The notes beneath the pieces were generated by a model. That model was not told where the DNA came from and made no database searches. It saw nothing but the letters and a program-made list of their open reading frames with translations. Below, one piece after another: positions 10,011 to 50,620 of a DNA stretch of 64,000 nucleotides. Source of the stretch: Mobula birostris. Lineage: Eukaryota. Within the stretch, counting starts at the first letter, position 1. Every line of letters starts with the position of its first letter. A program made the position numbers and the translations under genes. The DNA lies in contig NC_092375.1 in NCBI RefSeq assembly GCF_030028105.1, forward strand, positions 158,967,415 through 159,031,414. The letters are read 5' to 3'.

Positions 10011-12272
10011 CTCCCTAGGGCAAGGGGTTTAGAAGGAGTGAAATTTGTTAGATGTGTTCAGGAAGGTTTCCTGACACAATATGTGCATTAGCCTACAAGA
10101 AGAGAGGATGTACTTGACTGGTATTGGGAAATGAACCTGGTCAGGTGTCAGGTCTCTCAGTGGGAGAGCATTTTGGAGATAGTGATCACAATTCTATCTC
10201 CTTTACCATAGCACTGGAAAGGGATAGGAGCAGACAAGTTAGGAAAATGTTTAATTGGAGTAAAGGGAAATATGAAGCTATCAGGCAGGAACTTGGAAGT
10301 AAAAATTGGGAGCAGATGTTCTCAGGGAAATGTATGGCAGAAATGTGGCAAATATTCTCGGAATATTTGTGTGGCGTTCTGCATAGGTACTTTCCAATGA
10401 GACAGGGAAAGGATGGTAGGGTACAGGAATCATGGTGTACAAAGGCTGTTGAAAATCTAGTCTAGGAGTAAAGAAAAGCTCACGAAAGGTTCAAAAAAAT
10501 AGGTAATGATAGAGATCTAGAAAATTATAGGGCTAGCAGGAAGGAGCTTAAGAATGAAATTAGGAGAGCCAGAAGGGGCCATGAGAAGGCCTTGGTGAGC
10601 AGGATTAAGGAAAACCCCAAAGGATTCTACAAGTATGTGAAGAGCAAGAGAATGAGACCTGAGAGAATAGAACCAATCAAGTGTGACAGTGGAAATGTGT
10701 GTATGGAACCGGAAGAAGTAGCGCAGGTACTTAATGAACAAGGTACTTTGCTTCAGTATTCACTAGGGAAAAGGAACTTGGCAATTGTAGGGATGACTTA
10801 CAGCGGACTGAAAAGCTTGAGTACATAGACATTAAGAAAGAGGATATGCTGGAGCTATTGGAAAGCATCAAGTTGGATAAGTCACCGGGACTGGACGAGA
10901 TATACCCCAAGCTATTGTGGGAGATTGATGTGCCTCTGGCAATGATCTTTGCATCATTAATGGGGACAGGTTCCGGTGGATTGGAGAGTTGCAGGTGTTG
11001 TCTCTTATTTGAGCAAGGGAGTAAAGATAGCCCAGTGAGTCTTACTTCAGTGGTTGAGAATGTGACTAAACACATTGATAAAACTGGAGCAGTAGATGTA
11101 GTGTGTATGGATTTCAGCAAGGCATTTGATAAGGTACCCCATGCAAGGCTTATTGAGAAAGTAAGGAGGCATGGAATCTAAGGGGACCTTGCTTTGTGGA
11201 TCCAGAATTAGCTTGCCCACAGAAAACAAAGCGTGGTTGTAGACAGGTCATATTCTCATGGAGGTGGGTGATCAGTGGTGTGCCTCAGGGATCTGTTCTG
11301 GGACACCTACTCTTTATGATTTTTATAAATGACCTGGATGAAGAAGTGGAGGAATGGGTTAGTAAATTTGCTGATGACACAAAGGTTGTAGGTGTTGTGG
11401 ATAGTGTGGAGAGCTGTCAGAGGTTACAGCAGGACATTGATAGGATGCAAAACTAGGCTGAGAAGTGGCAGATGGAGTTCAATCCAGATAGGTGTGAGGT
11501 GATTCATTTTGGTAGGTCAAATATGATGGCAGAATATAGTATTAATGGTAAGACTCTTGGCAGTGTGGAGGATCAGAGGGATCTTGGAGCCCGAGTCCAT
11601 AGGAAACTCAAAGCTGTTGCGCAGATTCACTGTGTTGTTAAGAAAGCATATGTTATATTGGCCTTCATCATTCATGGGATTGAGTTCAAGAGCCAAGAGG
11701 TAATGTTGCAGCTATATAGGACCCTGCTCAGACCCCACTTGGAGTACTGTGCTGAGTTCTGGTCACCTCACTACAGGAAGGATGTGGAAACGATGGAAAG
11801 CATGCAGAGGGGTTTTACAAGGATATTGCCTGGATTGGGGAGCATGCCTTCTGAGAATATGTTGACTGAACTTGGCCTTTTCTCCTTGGAGCGGTGGAGG
11901 ATGAGAGGTGACCTGACTGAGGTGTGTAAGATGATGAGAGGCATTGATCATGTGGATAGTCAGAGGCTTTTTCCCAGGACTGAAATGGCTAACACTAGCT
12001 GCTTAGTTTTAAGGTGCTTGGAAGTAGGTACAGTGGAGATGTCAGGGGTAAGTTTTTTATGCAGAGAGTGGTGAGTGTGTGGAATGGGCTGCCGGCGACA
12101 GTGGTGGAGGCGGATACAATAGGGTCTTTTAGGAACTCTTGGATAGGAACATGGAGCTTAGAAAAATAGAGGGCTATGGGTAACCCCAGGTACTTCTAAA
12201 GTAAGTATATGTTGGGCACAGCATTGTTGGCCAAAGTGCCTGTATTATGCTGTAGGTCTTCTAAGTTTCTAT
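10011..12272 (+). mobile_element. CR1 LINE, 5'-truncated and internally deleted, inserted in the viral integrase
   Basis: GDSDHN (endonuclease), [35 protein letters not shown], and a 3' tail. Confidence 0.95.
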
Positions 12273-26266: not shown

Positions 26267-28034
26267 TTCATTCATTTCCGTAGACACTGCTGAGATGCTC
26301 CAGCATTTTGTATGTGTTGCATTGGATTTCCAGCAACTGCACAAGTTCTTGTGTTCACCATAATCTACAATGCTTTCCATTTTATACTTCCTTGAATTAT
26401 GTGTGGAACGATCTGTCTGGATAACACACAAACCAAAGCCTTTCACTGTATCCTGGCATAAATGACAATAATAAATTAGCTATTAATCACCAATGTAAAG
26501 TCCTTTGATGTAAATCTTTCTATTGATTGATGAGAGATGCTACTTAGAGATTACTTTGACCTTATTTCTACTCCCTCCCTAAGCAGATTTTCTTTTCTCC
26601 TGGAATTGGGGCCAGTGTGGGTTATACATTAGCTGAAAGATGCTTCTATTGGAGTCCTGAAGGAGGGTCTCAGCCTGAAATATCGACTATCGACATTTCC
26701 ATTGATGCTGCCTGACCTGCTGAGTTCCTCCAGCATTTTATGTGTGCTGCTTTGGATTTCCAGCTTCTGCAGACTTTCTCATGTTTATGCTTCTACATGA
26801 TCTTCTTTGATCTACATGTCTTTTGATTTCCTCATTATCTTATTCTGCATTTGACTGGATAATAAAGGACAGTACTTTAGTTGTATTGAACTCATTAGAG
26901 CAAACTACAAGGCAAATTCATTTCCCTGTTTGAAACTTCAGAACCACATCATGCTAAATCTCTCATAACGGCAGAACTGAAGAAATACTTTACGAATATT
27001 TCAATCAATATTGTCATTTCAGATTGCACAGATACAGACCTGTGAAATCTCACACAGCCTAGGCTGACAAGGCAAGTTAGGCATCTTGTGATCTGTTTTT
27101 AATCTATTTGTTAGAACTTAGCATACAGTACATTTGAGATGTATCTTTGATCATCTAACCACTTATTGATACATTGTTGGCTTGCACTCCCTTGACATGA
27201 TGTTTCTCAGACAAAATACAGCTTAAGATTCAAAAGCTTTGCAGCTTAAAACCCAATACTGGCCAGTCCTTTGCAGTTAAAATCACCTCTAAAGATGATA
27301 TGCAATGGATTCCATTTAACTGGGATACTTTGGGACCAAAACATTTTGGCCTAATTAAGCAGCTGCCCCAACTAGACAGAGTTTCACGGGAATAGTTTAA
27401 AAGGTATAAAAAGACAAGCTACTGTTTAATTCAGTAAGACTTTATGAATTTAAAGGAAGTATAGAACAAATTAGAATACTTTCAATACTATTACAGTACT
27501 ATAACATTGTGTATTAGTAGTTATCAGTGGAGTAATTCATACAGTGTATGTTCCTGTGTTCTTCTGATTGACTGCGAATGAACAAAATCAGCGCAGATAC
27601 CAAGAGTAGATAATGGACTGCCTTCAAACAATACCACCAATAATTGTATCTGCCAAATCTTCATTTTCATTAAACATTCAAGATGGTTATCGATACTTTC
27701 AAGTTCTTCATTGTTCCTAATTTGTTGAAGTAGTGAAGTTTCAGTTATGTTTTGTAACATCAAAGTTATTCAAAAGAAGACTTATTGAGTCCAATATGCA
27801 GTTTAACTTTAGGTTTATTTTAAGTGAAGTGCATACATGTCATGTGGTAGTGTGAAGACATCTTCAATTGACCTATTTAAAAATATGCAGGATAACCCTT
27901 AATGAATTATTTAAACAAACAGGAATACATTCAAACAATATATATATACAAGATTACTCAAATATTATTGAAATACACTACACTCCTTCCTGCTTAGCTA
28001 TAAACTCTGTCTCAATAGAAAAAGCATTTCAACT

Positions 28035-31000
28035 TTTCAGAGTTAGACTGCAACCAATCAGCAGAAGCATGAAAAGAGAGCTACCTTTTCATTTAGGTTC
28101 ACAATCAAAATTAAAAAGGCTGCATTTCATGGCAGTTTATTGGAATTGGACTGCGACCAATCACTGAGCAGGAGCATAAGAACAGAACTACATTTTCACT
28201 TAGGTTTGCAATGAATATTAAAAAGGTAGCGCTTCGGTGTTGGACAGCGACCAATCACAGAGTGGGATTCATCAGAAAGAGCAAATAAAATAAGCCAGCT
28301 GCAAGTGCACCATCTCGGATTGCAAGACCCTGCAGCGGATAGTGAGGTCAGCTGAGAAGATCATCGGGGTCTCTCTTCCCGCCATTACAGACATTTACAC
28401 CACACGCTGCATCCATAAAGCAAACAGCATTATGAAGGATCCCATGCACTCCTCATACAAACTCTTCTCCTTCCTGCCACCTGGCAAAAGGCACCGAAGT
28501 ATTCGGGCTCTCACGACCAGACTATGTAACAGTTTCTTCCCCCAGGTCATCAGACTCCTCAATACCCAGAGCCTGGTCTGACACCAACCTACTGCTCTCT
28601 ACTGTGCCTATTGTCTTGTTTATTATTTATTGTAATGCCTGCACTGTTTTGTGCACTTTATGCAGTCCTGGGTAGGTCTGTAGTCTAGTGTAGTTTTGTG
28701 TTGTTTTATGAAGTTCAGTGTAGTTTTTGTATTGTTCATGTAGGACCATGGTCCTGAAAAACATTGTCTCATTTTTACTGTGTACTGTACCAGCAGTTAT
28801 AGTTGAAATGACAATAAAAAATGACTTGACTTGACTTGAAGTGGAGTGGCTATTGTTGTGAGTGGTCCAGTGGTGGAGTGGTTTTGGCATACACAAGATC
28901 ACGGTTGGGTGAGGTAAGTATCTGGTAAGTTTCTTTTTTTTCCTCTTTATTCTTCATTGTCTGTTAGGGCACTGTTAGTCCAGTGAAAATGGCTCCGGGG
29001 TAGTGTTTTGTTCTGTGTGTGAGAGATAGGAATTCTAGAAGATAGAGACACACAAATGATATGTAGCCTCCCAGGTACCAGGGTGAGGGTTGGGTCCATG
29101 GCATTCTAAAGGGGGAGGGTAAGCAGCTGGAGGTCTTAGTACATATTGGCACCAACAACATAGATAGAAAAGGTGAGGAGGTCCTGCAGAGCAATTTTAT
29201 GGAGCTAGGTAGAAAGCTGAGAAAAAGGACCTCCAGGGTAGAAATCTCTGGATTTCTGCCCATGCCTCGCACCTGTGGGGGTAAGAATAGGAAGATTTGA
29301 CATTTGAATGTGTGGCTAAGGAACTGGTGCAGGGGCCAGGGGTTTAGATTTATGGATCATTGGGATCTCTTCTGGGGGAAAGAACAACCTGTACAAAGGG
29401 GAAAGTTTACACCTGACCCGAGGGGGACCAACATCCTTGTGGGCAAGTCTGTTACAGCTGTTCAGGAGGGGTTACATGCTTGGCAGGGGGATAGAAACTA
29501 AAGTGATAGTGATAGTACTGAAGATAAGATAAGTCAGTGTGTAGTGAGACTGCTAGCAAGGAGGGTCTGGTGATAGGGCAAAAATGCAGTAAACAGGGTG
29601 AGTTGCAATTTAAAAGGCGGACAAAATTGTTGGGGGTGAATACAGGACTGAAGGTATTATTTCGGAATGCATGCAGTGTATAGAATAAGGTAGGTGAATA
29701 TGTAGCACAGTTACAATTTGGCATGTATGATGTTATGGGCATCACTGAATCATAGCTGAAAGCAAATTAGAGCTGAGAACTTAACGCCCATGGATACACA
29801 TTGTACAAAAAGGATTGGCAGGTAGGCAGAGGGGGTGGCGTGGCTCTGTTGGTAAAAAAATGAAATCAAGTCATTAGAGAGAAGTGGCATAGGGTCAGAA
29901 GGTGTTGAATCATGGTGAGTAGACCTAAGGAACTTCAAGGGTGAATAAACCCTGATGGGAGTTATACACAGAACACCCCCCCAAAAAAAACAGTGGTAAA
30001 GATGTGGACTACAAATTACAAAAGGAGATAGAAAATGTATGTCAAAAGGACAATGTTATGATAGTCATAGGGGATTTCCATATGCAGGCAGATTAGAAAT
30101 ATTAGTTTGGTGATGGATCCCAAGAGGGGGAATTTCTAGAATGCTTACAAGGTGGCTTTTTAGAGCAGCTTGTGGTTGAGCTCACTAGGGGATCAGTTAT
30201 TCTGGACTAGATGTTGTGATATAAACCAGAAGTGGTTAAGGTAGAGAGCTTAAGGGAGAGGAACCCTTAGGGGTAATTATCAAATATGATCTGCAATTTG
30301 ATAAGGTGAAGTTAAAGTCAGATATATCAGTATTACAGTGAAGTAAAGGGAATTACAAAGGCAAAAGAGAGGAGCTGGTTAAAGATGATTGGAAGGGGAC
30401 ACTAGCAGGGATGATGACAGAGCAGCAATGGCTAGCGTTTCTGGGAGCAATTCAGAAGGCACAAGCTATATATATCCCAAAGGGGAAGAAGTATTCTTAA
30501 GGCAGGATGACACAAACGTGGCTAACAAGATAAGTCAAAACAAACATAAAAGCCAATGAGAGAGCATATAGTAGAGTAAAATTTAGTGAAAAGTTGGAGG
30601 ATTGGGAAGGTTTTACAGACCAACAGAAGGCAACTAAAAATGTCATAAGGAAGGAAAAGATGGAATATGAAGGCAAACTAGCAAATAATATTAAAGAGGA
30701 TACCAGAAGTTTCTTCAGATATATAAAATGTAAAAATGAGAGTAGATATCAGAGCACTGGGAAATGATGCTGGAGAGGTTGTAATGGGGACAAGGAAATG
30801 GCCAACTAACCAAATAGGTTTTTTGCATTAGTCTTCACTGTGGAAGATACTAGCAGTATGCTGGAGCTTCGAGAGTGTCAGGGTTCAAAAGTATGTGAAG
30901 TTGCGATTACTATTAAGAAGGTTCTTGGGAAACTGAAAGGTCTAAAGTTAGATAAGGTTATACACTGAAGGGTTTTGAAAGAGGTGGCTGAAGAGATTGT

Positions 31001-32115
31001 AGAAGCATTAGTAATGATGTTTCCAGAATCAATTGATTCTAGCATCATTCCAGAGGACTGGAAAATTGTAAATGTCACTCCACTCTTGAAGAAGGAAGAG
31101 AGGCAGAATATTAGAAATTATAGGCCAGTTAGTCCGACCTCAGTGCTTTGGAAGATGTTGGAGTCAATTGTTAAGGATGTGGTTTCGGGGTATTTGGAGG
31201 CACATGATAAAATAGGCTGTAGTCGGCATGGTTTCCTCAAGGGGAAATCTTGCCTGACAAATCTGTTGGAATTCTTTGAAGAAATAACAAACAGTATAGA
31301 CAAAGGAAAATCAGTGGATGTTGTGTACTTGGATTTTCAGAAGGTCTTTGACAAGGTGCCACACATGAGGCTGCTTAACAAGTTAAGAGCCCATGGAATT
31401 CCATGGAAGATATTAGCATGGATAGGGCATTGGCTGATTGGCAGGAGGCAAATATTTGGAACAAAGGGAGCCTTTTCTGATTGGCTGCCATGTTCTCCAG
31501 GAGTCTGTGCTAGGACTGCTTCTAGACATTAGAAGAATGAGCAAAGAAGTGGCCAATGGAATACAGCTCAGTATTTTGAGCAGTTTTGGGCCGCTTATCT
31601 AAGGAAGTATGTTTTCTCACATTGGAAGGGGTTCAAAGGGGGTTCAGGAAAACGATTCCAGGATTGAAAGGCTTGTCATATGAGAAATGTTCAATGACTC
31701 TGGGCCTCAACTCACTGGAATTCAGAAGAATGAGTGGTGACCTTATTGAAACCTATCAAATGTTGAAAGGCCTAGAAGAATTAATTTGGAGAGCATGTTT
31801 CTTATGGTGGGGCTGTTTAAGACCAGAGGACACAGCCTCAGAATAGAAGGGTGTCCTTTTAGAACAGAGATGAGGAGGAATTTCATTAACTACCAAATAG
31901 TGAATCTGTGGAATTTGCCACAGGTGGCTGTGGAAGCAAAGTCATTGGGTATATTTAAGGCAGAGGTTGACGGTTGCTTGATGAGTCAGGGTATGAAGGA
32001 CTATGGAGAGAGGACAGGAGATACAGGCTGAGAGGTAAAATGGATCAGCCATGATGAAATGACAGAGCAGACTCGATGGACCAAATGGCGAAATTCTGTT
32101 TCTATATCTTTTGGC
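28035..32115 (+). mobile_element. Near-full-length decayed CR1 (5'UTR, ORF1 esterase remnant, ORF2 EN-RT, tail)
   Basis: VHIGTNN and NVWLRNWCRGQGFRFMDHWDLFWG (ORF1). GGGVAL, NYRPVS, SCLTNLLEFFEE, DFQKVFDKVPH (ORF2). Internal deletions. Confidence 0.9.
28308..28838 (+). mobile_element. Rex1 3' end nested in the CR1 5'UTR
   Basis: SAEKIIG..KDPMH..LPPGKRHRS..NSFFPQVIRLLN. (GACTT)n tail. Possible AAGTG TSD. Confidence 0.88.
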
Positions 32116-32159
32116 CCACCTGAGGCTGCAGGAAGTGGTTCTGATAGCGGTAGCCACTT

Positions 32160-32710
32160 TTCTTCTTCTTTTTTCTTCCTTTAGTTTGTGCATCTTGATC
32201 TTGTGAAGTTCCATTTAGGTCATTGGAGTATTCTCTTATCAATCTTATCTATTTCCCCCTTATGATCTGATCCCTCTATTGGTATAACATTACTTGATAA
32301 ATCCTCTGTTTTCGTATCTCATTGACTCCTTTCTTTTTGGCCTTCCATTCATCCATTTGACTTTGGTCTTTGTATATACTTTTACAAACAGCTTTTTGTC
32401 TCCTATTTGAAGTTCATGCAATAACTTTAATGCACTTAAAGCAGATTCTGGATCCCTAAACTCACAAAAGCCGAAGGCTTGCAATTTTCCAGAAACTCCT
32501 TGACCTCACTTCCAACTTTAAACATAGCCACATTTCACAAGTAACTGCCTGATTAACACATCAGAAGCTTTCTAAAGCTCCCGTGTTTCCTACAAAAACT
32601 GCTGTAGTCGAACCACTGCTTTCATCACTTTCATGCTTTTTCTAAGCAGCATGGTCCTTTGTTGACCCAATATGCTTTCTAACCAGAGGCACAGAGGTTG
32701 GCACCGACAC
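32160..32710 (-). pseudogene. RBM25: Processed (intronless) RBM25 fragment covering the RRM region
   Basis: VSVPTSVPLVRKHIG..SGSTTAVFVGN..ASDVLIRQLLVKCG..SGKLQAFGFCEFRDPESALSALKLLHELQIGDKKLFVKV..RDQII..LIREYS. Human RBM25 reads VLVPTVSMVGKHLG..GPTTTVFVGN..SGKLQAFGFCEYKEPESTLRALRLLHDLQIGEKKLLVKV. Stops and frameshifts present. Confidence 0.92.
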
Positions 32711-32764
32711 CTGTTTGTCCTCTGTTGAGCAACAATTCATAGTGTAGAGCATGGAGACAGTTAT

Positions 32765-33979
32765 GCCATCATCCAGTACCTTTCTTAATTTGCTTCCAGT
32801 TTAATTTATTGTTGGGAGTATGACATGCAAATGATGGATGGATCTCCAATCTAGTTGTAGTTGTCTCAGCCAATCATGTCCCACAATGCTGGGCCTCCTG
32901 TTTTTACCAAGTACAAGTTAAATGTGACTTGTTGGTTATATTTCACAGTCACGAGTGTCATTATCTCAAGAGTTATCTTTTCTCTAGTATAAGTTCTTAG
33001 TTGGATATATGCAGGCTTCAGTTTAGTATCTTTGAAATGCTGTTCAAACTCATTTTGTGAAACAGCCAAACCAGTGTCTAATTCCATTTTAATTAATTGA
33101 CGCTCACATTTGGGTGTAAGCCATACTGCTTGTTAATTCTTAATTTTCACTCTGTAAATCAAAGGCTACACCATCCAGTGTCACTCTCATCATTATCAGA
33201 TAATTCATCAACAGCGTGCAGATTAGTGCTCTTTCTGAAAATGCACATTGCCTTTTTGCTTTTGCTCTTCCCTGAGCAGTCCATTTATTTTTGTCTACCC
33301 AGCATACTCTTTGTATATGACCTATTTTGTTGCATTTCTGCAAGATTAGCCTTTAAATCTGCATTTGTTTGGTGTATGTGAGCCCCTGCTACTATAGTAA
33401 CACAATTTGTTTGGCCAGGCTAGTTTCTGTTTAGACACCACATTTTATTCACCTTTACTTTCATTCCTGACTGCAACTCAATTGCATCTCTGTCTGTAGT
33501 TTCCACTGAAATAGCGATTCCTACTGCTCTTTTGAATGTAAGTTATGCTTCATTTAGGAGATATTTCTGAATGCTTTAGTTTAAGATTCCATAAACTAAA
33601 CAATCTCTTAGTGTATCAGTATGTCCATTACTGAACAGACAATGCTCAGACAATCTCTTCAATTCAGCTATGTATGCTGAAATGGACTACCCTTCTTTTC
33701 GATACTGCTTATGAAAACCAAAGCATTCTGCAAACAACAATGGCTTTGGTTCTAAATGTTCATGTATTACTTTTACAATTGCAGCAAAGCTCATTTCTGT
33801 TGGTTTGTTTGGAGCAGTTAAACTTTGAAGCAAACTGTATACTTTAATCTCAATGCAATTGGCAAAATTGGCACTGACTTCTCATTGGCTATTTTATTTG
33901 CTTCAAAATACTGTTTAGTATATATGAGCCAATTACCCACCATGTAAACAAACTCAATCTTTCTGATGTAGCTAGCCAT
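32765..33979 (-). pseudogene. Gypsy gag-protease, decayed
   Basis: Start MASYIRKIE at 33979. Zn-knuckle CNKIGHIQRVC. Protease MELDTGLAVS. Ends at KLRKVLDD, before RT. Confidence 0.88.
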
Positions 33980-34737
33980 TTCTAATTTTTTAAAATAATC
34001 ATTATCACCCTCTAGTCACTTTTTCTGAACCCTGAATTATGCCATTTATGCCCTTTTTATAAACTCGATGCCTTTGCACATGCTGGGATGTATTTTTCAC
34101 TCACTGTGTTGTTTTTCGTTGAAATATCTCACTGTGATTTAACAGGTTGGTAACTGCCTCAGCTTTGTATTCAAAAAAATACCTCGTTGCCAGGTTTGTA
34201 ACTTTAAAACATTGAAATAATTCAAAAGAACACAGTAAATCCAAAATGCAGTCTAACTTTGGGTTCACTTTAAGCGAGGCACATATGTATCACATATACA
34301 TATAATCCATAATGAATCATCCAAATGAATATGAATACTTAATCAACCAATATATATTCAAAAGATTACTCAAATATTACTGAAATATTAAATATACAAC
34401 AGTTTCAATTTCACTCCCGACTGATTCTTGCTTCTGCAAGCCTAAATTTTTGAAACTGCAGTGAGCAAAACATTTCTAAGTTGTCCTGCTATTGATTTCT
34501 TGCCAACCTTCAGTGATAGAAATCACTGTTTTTTTTTCCAAACACAAACACACACAACTTACGCTACTTAAAAACTATTTTCTCCAAGCACGCTATAGAG
34601 TCTAACGGCCATACAAATGCACGCATCTGATGCTCGATAGCAACTGTTCAGCAACAGTCTCCTGCCCTAATTAAGTGGCATTGTGTCCCAAATAAACGGA
34701 GGAAATCCTAGCTATTTTCTCGATCAGTCTTTGATCT

Positions 34738-35795
34738 TAGACCATAAGACCATAAGACAAAGGAGCAGAAGTAGGCCATTCGGCCCATCGAGTCTGCTCC
34801 GCCATTTTGTCATGAGCTGATCGATTTTATCCTATTTAGTCCCACTGCCCCACCTTCTCACCATAACCTTTGATGCCCTGGCTACTCAGATACCTGTCAA
34901 TCTCTGCCTTAAAGACACCCAATGACTTGGCCTCCACTGCTGCCCATGGCAACAAGTTCCATAGATTCACCACCCTCTGACTAAAAAAATTTTTTTGCAT
35001 TTCTGTTCTGAAAGGGCGCCCTTCAATCCTGAAGTCATGCCCTTTCGTACTAGACTCCCCCATCATGGGAAACAACTTTGCCACATCCACTCTGTCCATG
35101 CCTTTTAACATTCAAAATGTTTCTATGAGGTCTCCCCTCATTCTTCTAAACTCCAAGGAATACAGTCCAAGAGCGGACAAATGTTCCTTATATGTTAACC
35201 CTCTCATTCCTGGAATCATTCTAGTGAATCTTCTCTGTACCCTCTCCAACGTCAGCACATCCTTTCTTAAATAAGGAGACCAAAACTGCCCATAGTACTC
35301 CAAGTGAGGTCTCATCAGCGCCTTACAGAGCCTCAACATCACATTCCTGCTCCTATACTCTATTCCTCTAGAAATGAATGCCAACATTGCATTCGCCTTC
35401 TTCACTACCGACTCAACCTGGAGGTTAACTTTAAGGGAATCCTGTACGAGGACTCCCAAGTCCCGTTGCATCTCCGAACTTTGAATTCTTTCCCCATTTA
35501 AATAATAGTCTGCCCGTTTATTTTTTCTGCCAAAGTGCATAACCATACACTTTCCAACATTGTACTTCATTTGCCACTTCTCTGCCCATTCTTCCAATCT
35601 ATCCAAGACTCTCTGCAGACTCTTCATTTCCTCAGCACTACCAGCCCCTCCACCTATCTTCGTATCATCAGCAAACTTAGCCACAAAGCCATCTATTCCA
35701 TAATCCAAATCGTTGATGTACAATGTAAAAAGAAGCGGCCCCAACACTGATCCCTGTGGGGTACCTCTGGTAACCGGCAGCCAACCAGAATAGGA
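34738..35795 (-). mobile_element. Young CR1 3' fragment
   Basis: 211-aa open RT C-terminus (35112-35747). GACCATAA octamer tail. Confidence 0.95.
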
Positions 35796-37169
35796 TCTTG
35801 AAGAGTTGTCCCCAATAAGTAGCCACCATTAACTGAATCCATTGTGTTCATACCATTATGTTCAGAAAATAATAATTTACAGGTAAGATAATACATGGTA
35901 TCAGTGTAAAACAATCACTGAATGAACTAGAAAAAGTATAGATTGAAGTCATAATGTGTGAGTTACACATGTGAGTTTGCCAAACTGCAATTTGCACACA
36001 ATTTTTGTACTGCCTTCTGTGTAACCTGACAACAGGGTCAGTCAGTGCCAACATGCTGCTTACAGTGAGTAGCTGCTTGTGCCAGTTGAGGATTGCTGGT
36101 GCTGACTGAAGCAGTTAAAGTCACTGAACAGATTTCAGAGTTTTCTTGAGGTCACAGCAAAGCAGAGCACAGGGCAGCATGTTGATTTTCTGACGTGGCT
36201 GTGTACGCATCAACAGAGGGAAAGAGTCGTAATCCAGCCCAGGGATCTGGTGAGACTTGTCACTAATGAAGTAACTGTGACATGGTCAATAGCCATTGTG
36301 AAGCTCTGCAGTGCTGACACAAGTTTAATGACCTCTCACTCCTGGTTAGAGCTGGGAATAAATCAGTAAATTCACTTCCTAACAGCTGCACCCCATACAT
36401 ATTGAAAGCTGTACACCCGTACTAGTAAAGACCTTGATCAATCAGGACATGTATCACTTATTCTCATACTTCACCTCATCATCACATTTTACAATCATGC
36501 CACACTGCTGTCACAGAGCTCACTCAAAAATGGATGGTCCAACATGAAGTTTGCAATGTACATCATTGACATGTTTCCCCCCATCTTGAAAAATGCGGTG
36601 ACGTACAATCTCCTCCAAGTAGCAGCAGATTGATATGGGCAGTGTGTGATGGTATGGGTCTGGATGCAGAGACTACCAAAAGATACAGCAGGAGGTAGAT
36701 CATTTGCAAGTACGGCAGGGGAATGGCAGATGGAGCTTAATCCGGGCAACAATGAAGTGTTGCACTTTGCAGATCAAATGTGAAGGGAAATAAGCTGTTA
36801 ATGGCAGCACTGATGCACAGAAGAATCTCATATTCCAAGTGCAATGCTTCCTGAAGGACTCCACATAAGTTCAAAGAGAGGTAAAAGGCAGAATATGGAA
36901 TCCATGCCTTTTATTATTCAAGTCATTGAGTGTAAGAGTCTGCCCATTGCCTTCTGTTTTTGGTCTGTGATATGCACATAATTCTCTATTGGAGTTTCAC
37001 AGATTGGCTTCCCATTTTTAACACACTGCGGCTGGCACGCTGTCTGCATTTTTCTATTGAACTGGAGAAAATCCCTAGCTTGACGGGGATTAGAGAAAAA
37101 AAAATGTAGGCTCATTATGGTCAGAAACAGGGGAAGTTGTCATACAGGAGAAACAAATGGCAGAAAAAA

Positions 37170-38019: not shown

Positions 38020-39915
38020 CAGAAACATAGAAACAAAGAAAACCCACAGCCCAATAAAGGCCCACAAAGTTGTGCCAAACATGTCCCTACCTTAGAAATT
38101 ACTAGACTTCTTCATAGCCCTCTATTTTCCTAAGCTTTGTGTACCTATCTAAAAGTCTCTTAAAAGACCCTATTGTATCTGCCTCCACCACCGTTGACGG
38201 CAGCCCATTCCACACGCTCACTACTCTCTGAGTAAAAAAATTACCCCTGGTATCACTCTGTACCTACTCCCCAGCACCTTAAACCTGTGTTCTCTTGTGG
38301 CAAGCATTTCAGCCCTGGGAAAAAGCCTCTGACTATCCACATGATCAATGCCTCTCTTCATCTTATACACCTCTATCAGGTCACCTCTCATACTCCGTCG
38401 CTCCAAGGAGAAAAGGCCGAGTTCACTCAACTTGTTTTCATAAGGCATGCTCCTCAATCTAGGCAACATATTTGTACATCTCCTCTGCACCCTTTCTATG
38501 GTTTCCACATCCTTCCTGTAGTGAGGAGACCAGAACTGAGCACAGTACTCCACGTGGGATCTGATCAGGGTCCTATATAGCTGCAACATCTCCTAAATTC
38601 AACTCCACGATTACTGAAGGCCAATATACCCTATGCCTTCTTAACCACAGCATCAACCTGCACAGCTGCTTTGAGCGTCCTATGGACTCAGACTCCAAGA
38701 TCCTGCTGATCCTCCACACTGCCAAGAGTCTTACCATTAATACTATATTCTGCCATCATATTTGACCCACCAAAGTGAACTATTTCACACTTATCTGGGT
38801 TGAACTCCATCTGCCACTTCTTAGCCCAGATTTGCATCCTATCAATGTGCCGTTGTAACCTCTGACAGCCCTCCACACTATCCACAACACCTCCAACCTA
38901 TGTGTCATCAGCAAATTTACTAACCCATCCCTCCACTTCCTCATCCAGGTCATTTATAATAATCACGAAGAGCAAGGTTCCCAGAACAGATCCCTGAGGC
39001 ACTCCACTGGTCACCGACCTCCATGCAGAACATGACCTGTCTACAATCACTCTTTGCTTTCTGTGGGCAAGCCAGTTCTGGATTCACAAAGCAGTGTCCC
39101 CTTGGATTCCATGCCTCCTTACTTTCTCAATAAGCCTTGTATGGGGTACCTTATCAAATGCCTTGCTGAAATCCATATACGCTCCTTCATCAATGTGTTT
39201 AGTCACATCTTCAAAAAATTCAATCAGGCTCGTAAGGCAAGATCTGCCCTTGACAAAGCCATGCTGACTATTCCTAATCATATTATACCTCTCCAAATGT
39301 TCATAAATCCTGCTTCTCAGGATCTTCTCCATCAACTTACTAACCACTGAAGTAAGACTCACTGATCCATAATTTCCTGGGCTATCTCAACTCCCTTTCT
39401 TGAATAAAGGAAAAACATCCGCAACCCTCCAGATTCAAAGATCATCGCCAGAGGCTCCGCAATCTCCTTCCTCGCTTCCCACAGTAGCCTGGGGTACATC
39501 TCATCTGGTCCCGGCAGCTTATCCAACCTGATGCTTTCCAAAAGCTCCAGCACATCCTCTTTCTTAATATCTACATGCTCAAGCGTTTCAGTCTGCTGCA
39601 AGTCAGCACTACAATCACCAAGATCCTTTTCCATAGTGAATACTGAAGTAAAGTATTCATTATGTACCCCTGCTATTTCCTCTGGTTCCATACACACTTA
39701 CCCACTGTCACATTTGATAGGTCCTATTCTTTCACGTCTTATCCTCTTGCTCTTCACATACTTGTAGAATGCCTTGGGGTTTTCCTTAATCCTGCCTGCC
39801 AAGGCCTTCTCATGGCCCCTTCTGGCTCTCCTAATTTTCTTTTTAAACTCCTTCCTGTTAGCCTTATAATCTTCTAGATCCCTAACATTATCTAACTCTC
39901 TGAACCTTTCGTAAG
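38020..39915 (-). mobile_element. CR1 LINE, 5'-truncated (same subfamily as 10011-12272)
   Basis: SCLTSLIEFFEDVT, DFSKAFDKVPH, WQMEFNPDKC. (CATAGAAA)n tail. Confidence 0.95.
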
Positions 39916-48014: not shown

Positions 48015-50620
48015 ATTGGAAGGGCAACCAGGTAGACAGAGGGAGAGGCATGGCGCCGCTAGTAAAAGTTGAAAGCAAATCATTAGAGAGAGGTGATATT
48101 GAATCAGAAGGTGTAGAATCATTATGGGTAGAGCTAACAAGCTAAAAAGTTAAAAAGACCCTGATGGGATTTATATACAGACCTCAAAACAGTAGTAAAG
48201 ATTACAAATTACAATGGGAGATAGAAAATGCATGTCAAAAGTGCAATGTTACTATAGTCGTGGGGTTTTCAATATGCAGTAGATTGGGAAAATCAGTTTG
48301 GTGCTGGATCCCTGGGTGGGGAGTTTGTAGAATGCCAGAGCTGGCTTTTTGGAGCAGCTCACCGCAGAGCCCATGAAGGAAACAACTATTCTGGACTGGG
48401 TGTTGTGCAATAAACCCCGCTTTGATTAAAGGTAAAACCAGTGATCATAATATGATAGAATTCATCTTGCAATTTGAGAAGAAGAAGAAGCTAAAGTCAG
48501 AGGTTAAAGTGGAGTGAATTACAGAGACGTGAGAGAGGAGCTGGCCAAAATTGTTTGGAAAGAAACACTAGCAGAGATGACGGCAGAGTGGCAATGGCTG
48601 GAGTGTTTGGAATCAATTGGAATGATGCAAGATAGATACGTCCCAAGGAAGAAATAGTATTCTGAAGGCCGGATGATGCAACCGTGACTGACAAAAGAAG
48701 CCAAAGCCAACATTAAAATCAAAGAGAGTGTGTATAATAGAACAGAAATTAGTAGGAAGTTAGAGGATTGGGAACATTTTAAGAACCAACAGAAGGCAAC
48801 TCAAAAAGCCATAAAGAGGGAAAAGATGAAATACAAAGGAAAGCTAATCAATAATATTGAAGAGGATACAAAAAGTTTCTTCAGATAGATAAAGTGGAAA
48901 AAAGAGTTGAGAGCAGATATCAGGACATTGGAAAACTATGGTGGAGAGGTAGTAATGGCAGACAACTAATTAAGTTTACTGGATGTTCAAGAGTGGCAGG
49001 GGGCAGAAGAGTGTGAAGTTGCCATTACTAGGGAGAAAGTGCTCGGGAAATTGAAAGGTCTGAAGGTAGGTAAATCACCTGGACAGATGGTATACACCCT
49101 ACGGTTCTGAAAGAGGTGGCGAAAGAGACAGTGGAGCTATTAGTAATGATTCTGGCATGCTTCCAGAAGACTGGAAAAGTGAAAATGTCATTCCACTCTT
49201 CAATAAGGGAGAAAGGCAGAAGAAAATAAATTATGGGCCATTTAGTTTAACCTCAGTGACTGGGGAGATGCTGGAGTCGATTGGTAAGGATGTGGTTTTG
49301 GGAACTTGGAGGCACATGGCGACATAGGTCAAAGTCAGCATGGATTCCTAAGAGAAAAATCTTGCCTGAAAAATCTGTTTAAATTCTTTGAGGAAATAAC
49401 AAGCGAGATAGACAAAGGAGAATCACTGGATGTTAGGAAGTTGGATTTTCAGAAGGCCTTTGACAAGGTGCCACACATGAGGCTGCTTAACAAGTTAAGA
49501 CCTCATGATATTATAGTAAAGATACTAGCATTGATGGAGCATTGGCTGATTGACAGGAGACAAAGAGTATGAATAAAGGAGGCCTTTTCTGGTTGGCTGC
49601 TGATAACTAGTGATGTTCCACAGGGGTCTGTGTTGGGACTGTTTCCTTTTACTTTATATGTCAGTGATTCAGATGATGGAATCGACGGCTTTGTGGCCAA
49701 GCTTGTAGACAATATGCAGTGGCAGGTAGTGTTGAGGATGCAGAGAGATTACAGCAGGGCTTAGATTAAGAGAATGGCCAAAGTGCAGATGGAATACAGT
49801 GTTGGGAAGTGAATGGTCATGCACTTTGGCAGAAGAAAATAAATCATTGCCTATTTTCTAAATGGTGAGAAAATTCAAAAATCTGAATTGCAAAGGGACT
49901 TGGGATTCTCATGCAGGATTCCTTAAAGGTTAATTTGCAGGTTGAGTCTGTGGTGAGGAAGGCAAATACAATGTCAGTATGCATTTGAAAAGGACTAGAA
50001 TATATTAACAAAGATGTAATATTGTGACGTTATAAGGCACAGGTGAGGCCTCACTTGGAGTACTGGGAGCAGTTTCAGGCCCCCTATAAAAGAAAGGGTG
50101 TGCCGACATTGGAGAGGGTTCAAAGAAGTTTCATGAAAATTATCCCGGTATTGACAGGCTTATCATATGAGGTGCATTTGATGGCTCTGGGCCTGTACTC
50201 ATTGTAATTCAGGAGAATGTGGGGGGATCCCATTGAAACCTGTTGAATGTTGAAAGGCCTCAATGGAGTGGATGTGGAAAAGAAGTTTTCTATTGTGTGG
50301 GAGTCTAAGTCCAGAGGATACAGACTCAGGATAGAGGGACATCCATTTCAAATGAAGATGAGGAGGTATTACTTTAGTCAGAGAGTAGCGAACCTGTGGA
50401 ATTTGTTGCCATGAGTGGTGGCGGAGGCCAAGTCATATGGGTATTCTTAAAGCAGAAGTTGATAGATTCTTGATTAGTCAGGGCATGAAGGGATACGGGG
50501 ATAATGCTGGAGATTGGGGCTGAGAAGGAATGGATCAGCCACGAGGAAATAGCAGAGCAGACTTGATGGACCGAAAGGCCTAATTCTGTTCCTCAGTCTT
50601 ATAGTTTTATGGACTTATGA
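48015..50620 (+). mobile_element. Decayed CR1 ORF2 and tail
   Basis: IYRPQNS, SQHGF..SCLKNLFKFFEE, DFQKAFDKVPH. Confidence 0.92.

Follow-up and report, generated by a model that had tools for sequence, protein, structure and literature searches.

The window analysed here, a stretch of 64,000 nucleotides of the Mobula birostris genome (RefSeq assembly GCF_030028105.1, contig NC_092375.1, positions 158,967,415 to 159,031,414), holds on its minus strand a decayed Gypsy long terminal repeat (LTR) retrotransposon in which a spliced piece of the mRNA of the host gene RBM25 stands in place of reverse transcriptase (RT), RNase H (RH) and most of integrase (IN) (Table 1). Both LTRs, a primer-binding site (PBS), a polypurine tract (PPT) and a perfect 5-bp target site duplication (TSD; GTTTC, 5 of 5 positions) were recovered, as the original prediction, made from the letters of the window, had proposed. 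The LTRs agree at 153 of 192 aligned bases, with a Kimura two-parameter (K2P) distance of 0.24 (0.25 by global alignment), the 3' LTR ends in CT, and the PBS is probably that of tRNA-Ser(GCU). Gag and protease (PR) together were traced at 33979-32819 by tblastn with P0021 and P0024. Further along the element an RNA recognition motif (RRM) lies at 32505-32290 (Pfam RRM_1, E 8.8e-5); its top protein matches are RBM25, and the named entries among the 19 protein matches of the open reading frame (ORF) 32505-32290 are RBM25 or RRM proteins. The prediction that RT, RH and IN are all absent was right for RT and RH, which are replaced, and has to be amended for IN, of which a 45-bp remnant of the tail persists at 32156-32110. 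Neither tRNA genes nor relevant tandem arrays were found in the window.

Table 1. Features of the RBM25-carrying element and of the elements nested in it (window coordinates).
Feature	Position	Strand	Evidence
TSD copy beside 5' LTR (GTTTC on +)	34402..34406	.	5/5 match to 27738-27742
5' LTR, ~209 bp, last bases partly lost	34193..34401	-	79.7% identity to 3' LTR; resembles sister-copy LTRs
PBS	34182..34192	-	Sequence; position same in copies
Gypsy gag, disrupted by stops and frameshifts	33251..33979	-	tblastn with P0021, 44-54% identity, E 1e-71
Gypsy aspartic protease and linker to switch point	32769..33159	-	RT-bearing sisters run on into RT here
5' switch point: 7-nt microhomology TGCCACA and final 3 nt of upstream RBM25 exon	32759..32768	-	8/10 identical to parent exon end
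RBM25 48-nt cassette exon	32711..32758	-	Parent C1:154450900-947; 42/48 identical; AG/GT borders in parent
Four more RBM25 exons, spliced, spanning the RRM	32187..32710	-	149/168, 48/58, 139/159, 107/131 identical; Pfam RRM_1; parent C1:154454372-542, 154456280-337, 154458281-441, 154463239-~395
Purine-rich leftover of downstream RBM25 exons after internal deletions, with the 3' microhomology at its end (in long forms GAGAAGAAA)	32157..32186	-	Long forms and exons of the parent compared
Remnant of Gypsy integrase C-terminal tail	32110..32156	-	
Nested CR1-type LINE, decayed, 5' UTR to 3' end	28040..32114	+	RVT_1 E 1.2e-11; collinear at its 5' end with six places elsewhere
536-bp younger retroelement fragment in the LINE's 5' UTR, TSD AAGTG	28303..28838	+	89-94% identity to 3 other copies; missing from sister LINE copies
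Gypsy 3' UTR end and PPT (27991-27983)	27983..28039	-	
3' LTR, 240 bp	27743..27982	-	
TSD copy beside 3' LTR	27738..27742	.	

A single parental RBM25 gene was located at G000:C1:154.44-154.49 Mb by a search with the C-terminal PWI region, and the 3' PWI end of the gene is held by this parent only (3 matches among 9 candidates); three Pfam PWI matches were rejected as RBM25 on the grounds that they had no tblastn match to P0007. The insert is collinear with the parent and intronless, at 82-89% identity: the closing 10 nt of one exon are followed by a cassette exon of 48 nt and then by four further exons, so that five exon junctions are crossed in the window copy and eight in the longer copies described below. 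Spliced and in sense orientation, as predicted, it measures ~610 bp and not the ~550 bp first estimated. It starts and ends within RBM25 coding sequence, misses the entire 3' half of the mRNA, and carries neither a poly-A tract nor a TSD of its own, the two marks that had been named as arguing for an independent insertion. The parent has two cassette exons between two conserved exons, one of 30 nt (G000:C1:154446024-154446053) and the one of 48 nt (154450900-154450947), and neither occurs in the three fish RBM25 proteins compared. A contig in run X20 includes the 30-nt exon and skips the 48-nt exon, the opposite of the form captured by the element. The family preserves an old RBM25 splice form, with the 48-nt exon in and the 30-nt exon out.

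Junctions were compared across 20 RT-bearing sister loci and 41 chimeric loci. The order gag-PR-RT-RH-IN, read in the RT-bearing copy L114, and the single frame, the 5-bp TSD and the TG...CA ends of the family are those of Ty3/Gypsy elements. In L114 RT-RH-IN lies between the same two points that bound the insert elsewhere, hence the insert substitutes for ~3 kb of pol and does not merely interrupt it. The sisters have LTRs, PBS, PPT and age in common with the chimeras, and their RT, RNase H and integrase match P0024. At the 5' junction the sisters read ...GAT GCC ACA GCA GTG and the host mRNA ...CCT GCC ACA ACT GTC; the chimeras match Gypsy through the common TGCCACA and the host thereafter, with the codon phase unchanged. 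The common 5' junction is present in 50 of 57 copies that had been found without the junction motif, and among these 50 the next codon is the host ACT in 35, the Gypsy GCA in none and other letters in 15, which points to a single capture. At the 3' end the long forms exit the tenth coding exon at GAGAAGAAA, a sequence common with the integrase tail, which from there on is out of its own frame. The microhomologies at the insert ends thus amount to 7 nt (5', TGCCACA) and 9 nt (3', GAGAAGAAA), and since both are common with the RT-bearing sisters they fit a double template switch. In the window copy the 5' junction falls at ~32768, after ...KVLDD. The open stretch across it that had been predicted, GSKLRKVLDDGITVSML...KHIG, is real (ORF 32800-32642, 52 aa), but the junction had been set after EDKQ, ~55 nt too far downstream; the residues VSMLYTMN...KQ, which had been assigned to Gypsy, are encoded by the 48-nt cassette exon of RBM25.

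The insert occurs in two main lengths. Long forms carry ~890 nt and touch nine exons, and the commoner short form carries 610 nt; the window copy is a short form in which both outer junctions are kept and internal exons are lost, and intermediates occur. When 30 loci were chosen by the 5' junction alone, five had exon 8 and were long, 19 had exon 7 but no exon 8, and six were interrupted inside 1.5 kb. The modal lengths retain the frame in 18 of 36 short and 7 of 18 long forms, the short form being a single event whose pattern later indels blur. Internal deletions recur also in RT-bearing sisters, in which the integrase tail is rejoined at AGAAGAAAGG, the same site as that of the RBM25 capture (L107, L118, L119, L124, L127, L197, L199, L205, L216). 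This rejoining site is a switch hotspot.

The chimera is dispersed throughout the genome at high copy number. Its 23-nt junction was found at 567 sites at ≤1 mismatch (control 0) and the version that continues into RT at 1,125 sites. As only 22 of 70 copies retain the 23-nt junction at this threshold, the 567 sites translate into a likely total of ~1,800 or more chimeric copies; the 5,139 first-look candidates of a search of the genome with the RBM25 protein are not copy numbers. Chimeras accounted for 9 of 30 loci picked via the Gypsy tail; by this count and by the two numbers of junction sites they make up about one third of the parent Gypsy family, and no other captured host gene was seen among these 30. 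When window positions 32100-32900 served as query, all 39 other top places spanned protease and insert together (one in pieces) at 77-81%. Both LTRs lay in the stretch examined at 24 of the 41 chimeric loci, and at 10 of these 24 the TSDs match at 4 or 5 of 5 positions and all differ from each other. Amplification as a non-autonomous family, which the original prediction had raised as a possibility, is therefore borne out by the at least 567 dispersed sites and by the differing TSDs. A chimeric locus (L066) and an RT-bearing one (L128) on different contigs have gtaagggg / gggggaag as identical flanks, which would suit insertion of both at one and the same place in a repeat. Furthermore, the 5' junction is bridged by contigs of two organisms with different codes (runs X14, record 3, and X8, record 26), and short-form joints are also found there, so that the family is not limited to a single organism label. 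That the runs are RNA is a guess, and their contigs give presence, not expression.

Insert and LTRs are of the same age, because the distance of the RBM25 part from the commonest letters of the other copies (0.113; 0.124 for the window copy) is half the LTR-LTR distance (0.24 in the window, i.e. 0.12 per LTR). The insert is thus no younger than the LTRs, in agreement with integration as a unit. Median LTR-LTR K2P distances were 0.247 for 15 copies of the short set, 0.214 for nine of the long set and 0.222 for six RT-bearing copies. A tree built from 51 rows of gag-pro has the shape of a star, with a median terminal branch of 0.154 and a median internal branch of 0.005; long forms are interspersed with RT-bearing copies, and the one supported clade is formed by 10 short or intermediate copies, including that of the window.

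We consider it very probable that the window element is a defunct member of a high-copy Gypsy family whose RT-RNase H-integrase core gave way to spliced RBM25 by a double template switch, and that this family was spread by the enzymes of its sisters. A co-packaged RBM25 mRNA with the 48-nt exon in and the 30-nt exon out would have been copied once between the two microhomologies to give the long form, and the RT-bearing sisters would then have repackaged the hybrid in trans in the course of their own burst. Slippage in purine repeats may have led to the shorter 610-nt form, that of the window copy among others, and a CR1 LINE would have inserted into the window copy later. As for RBM25 itself, it most probably travelled as a passenger. 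An LTR-flanked retrocopy born by template switching had been suggested at the outset, and the splicing, the microhomology and the lack of poly-A and TSD support it. Several observations weigh against this account. The junction is unclear in 7 of the 57 copies, 14 of the 24 two-LTR chimeras lack a clear TSD, and 17 of the 41 chimeric loci miss one LTR in the stretch examined. No intact autonomous helper was found among the RT-bearing copies examined, all of which are equally decayed. The copy number beyond 567 is an extrapolation, and the tree is poorly resolved (one clade of at least 3 rows at support ≥0.95), which leaves the order from long to short to be read from structure. Both the template switch and the mobilisation in trans, too, we infer from structure and have not observed.

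Two other routes would bring RBM25 into a Gypsy element. In one, a LINE produced a processed pseudogene of RBM25 that inserted into a Gypsy copy, or recombined with it as DNA, and the locus then spread. CR1-type LINEs occur here in abundance, one of them right next to the insert in the window, and recombination with a cDNA through microhomology at the DNA level would give similar junctions. However, the insert lacks the 3' half of the mRNA, poly-A and TSD, it replaces ~3 kb of pol instead of interrupting it, no PWI-bearing retrocopy was found, and the adjoining LINE is missing from the 19 other family copies compared; this route is largely refuted and we regard it as very improbable. The other, capture by splicing, is the classic model of oncogene transduction: a Gypsy element in an RBM25 intron would be spliced to the 48-nt exon, with a template switch at the 3' end only. 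The obvious RBM25 match does start exactly at the splice acceptor of this exon, as this model would have it, but the bases before the exon are the host ACT in most and the Gypsy GCA in none of the 50 copies counted above, and the 7-nt microhomology precedes this ACT, which places the switch within the previous RBM25 exon. ACT at that point occurs in none of the 20 RT-bearing donor loci. We therefore rejected capture by splicing, which is, if anything, still less probable than the pseudogene.

It is harder to decide against the idea that the cargo itself was selected, for example that an in-frame Gag-PR-RRM protein or a purine-rich RNA helped the element to be packaged or exported or to evade silencing, which would explain the one-third share. 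Over the 1,260 nt that precede the junction the commonest codons per column contain no stop in the RBM25 frame, whereas the other two frames have 54 and 37; in the RBM25 frame they are stop-free also across the 576-nt shared RBM25 part; hence the active element probably carried an open Gag-PR-RRM frame, judging from these reconstructed codons. Short forms retain the RRM exons and drop later ones, and a frequency-based test gave a ratio of non-synonymous to synonymous variants (N/S) of 1.4 vs 3.8 in short forms (p 0.02). This difference is unsupported in long forms or in all copies taken together, and it can be explained by recurrent transitions. The coding test on the 576-nt part left out rows with <80% cover (13 of 87); of the remaining 74 copies 73 have a stop or frameshift, and in the window copy the RBM25 part, with three stops and seven frameshifting indels, is open only around the junction. 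Unlinked variants are neutral (N/S 2.75, range 2.6-2.8, with 155 stop events), while a linkage filter on the 74 copies left no linked subfamily variants in the RBM25 part and eight in gag-pro (two synonymous, six not), too few to test. Open frames reach at most 381 aa in the 150 best of the 5,139 candidates, and purifying selection together with an intact frame, as in a functional chimeric retrogene or a domesticated Gag fusion, was not found in the 74 copies tested. The parent differs from the commonest letters by 17-18 synonymous and 2-7 non-synonymous changes; we rejected this as a sign of selection on the element, because the parent by itself should account for ~14 of the synonymous ones (127 sites x 0.11) and there was no outgroup. 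Moreover, an in-frame fusion is a one-in-three chance, the deletions lie in purine repeats, which are prone to slippage, and cargo-free RT-bearing deletion forms recur as well. The earlier suggestion of a once-encoded Gag-PR-RRM fusion thus holds as far as the frame permits it, no selection being detectable, and the comparison of copies by dN/dS that had been proposed yielded neutral variants and too few linked ones. Selection of the cargo appears unlikely to us, if clearly less so than the two routes discussed above, and RBM25 as a neutral passenger is to be preferred.

A second, younger Gypsy family bears on the same question, as a Sds3-domain sequence follows directly after its gag-protease, an architecture like that of the RBM25 carrier. 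The genome holds 114 matches, all 12 loci examined (L232-L243, e.g. G000:C26:1294442-1294900) have Gypsy gag or protease upstream, and the fusion is in frame by coordinates at 7 of 10 loci with a protease-side match. Its copies are ~90% alike and do not match the RBM25-carrying family at the DNA level. In a broader scenario Gypsy elements of this lineage would have repeatedly traded pol for in-frame host mRNA (RBM25, Sds3-domain), and the cargo would have been selected because the Gag-PR-RRM fusion or its RNA favoured the element, as a retrotransposon counterpart of gag-onc retroviruses; on the sequences at hand we give this scenario only a small chance. If it were true, thousands of copies of a splicing-factor fragment could feed small RNAs back on RBM25.

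Among known systems, transducing retroviruses carry host coding sequence in frame behind gag and depend on helpers. The RBM25 family resembles these gag-onc retroviruses in its in-frame fusion behind gag-pro and in its probable helper dependence, and differs from them in having no env and no evidence of cargo selection or protein expression. In gag, protease and integrase tail the family is like the K02A2.6-like Ty3/Gypsy polyproteins of fish and frog (P0021, P0024, P0025), presumably of the Mag clade, unlike which its pol core is swapped for a host mRNA. Among the published cases compared, the closest parallels are the LTR-mediated retrocopies of animals, in which a partial spliced mRNA replaces internal ORFs with a median microsimilarity of 6 bp and secondary retroposition follows (Tan et al. 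2016, PMC5131818). Spliced partial mRNA, both LTRs, lack of poly-A, microsimilarity at both switches (7 and 9 here) and non-autonomous secondary retroposition are common to both. Those cases are young and sit at one or a few places each (nine retrocopies at 18 insertion sites; PMC5131818), in contrast to at least 567 old copies, about one third of the parent family and a deletion series here. Maize Bs1 (1-5 copies, three parental genes and a reported functional hybrid gene; via Tan et al. 2016, PMC5131818) likewise has host exons within an LTR element and switch points common to all copies, whereas the RBM25 family has one gene, hundreds to thousands of copies and no sign of function. Pxyfem of Plutella, with 11 tandem W-linked copies producing silencing RNAs (bioRxiv 10.1101/2022.04.04.486979), is also a multi-copy partial cDNA tied to an LTR element with microsimilarity at the switch point; the RBM25 copies, in contrast, are dispersed and sense-oriented. 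Two reviews concur on the template-switch mechanism (PMC5470649, PMC13317346). A literature search, with repeat databases and most subscription journals outside its scope, returned no paper on an RBM25-carrying element, and the main text of a recent ray-genome preprint makes no mention of RBM25, retrocopy or pseudogene. The mechanism is thus already published, and the scale of the RBM25 family is far beyond the published cases compared (1 to 11 copies). LTR-mediated retroposition can make a major vertebrate repeat out of a block of host exons, and hundreds to thousands of copies provide a sample for testing the neutrality of captured cargo. Annotation of the RBM25 gene and read mapping in this lineage will be confused by the family copies.

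A search of the genome with RT returned chiefly another Gypsy family, only one of 12 loci being a sister of the window element. Seven RT matches of another Gypsy family at G000:C21:790515-970720, spaced by ~26-33 kb and with open frames of 400-842 aa, suggest a tandem segmental array.

The whole span 27743..34401 had originally been read as Gypsy, which overlooked the nested CR1 long interspersed nuclear element (LINE) and the 536-bp insert within it. The LINE makes up 4.1 kb of the 6.66-kb element span (uninterrupted copies measure ~2.9-3.2 kb) and entered the window copy after the Gypsy insertion. At its site ~220 nt of Gypsy tail and 3' untranslated region (UTR), present in other copies, are gone. 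Collinearity of its 5' end was established on seven loci, two of them overlapping. The 536-bp fragment ends in (CTTGA)n and gave no match in a Pfam search; two similar copies sit in RBM25 introns (L036, L039). Further CR1-like LINE copies lie in the window at 10479-12232, 34836-35828, 38059-39915 and 48064-50436, pairwise 72-91% alike.

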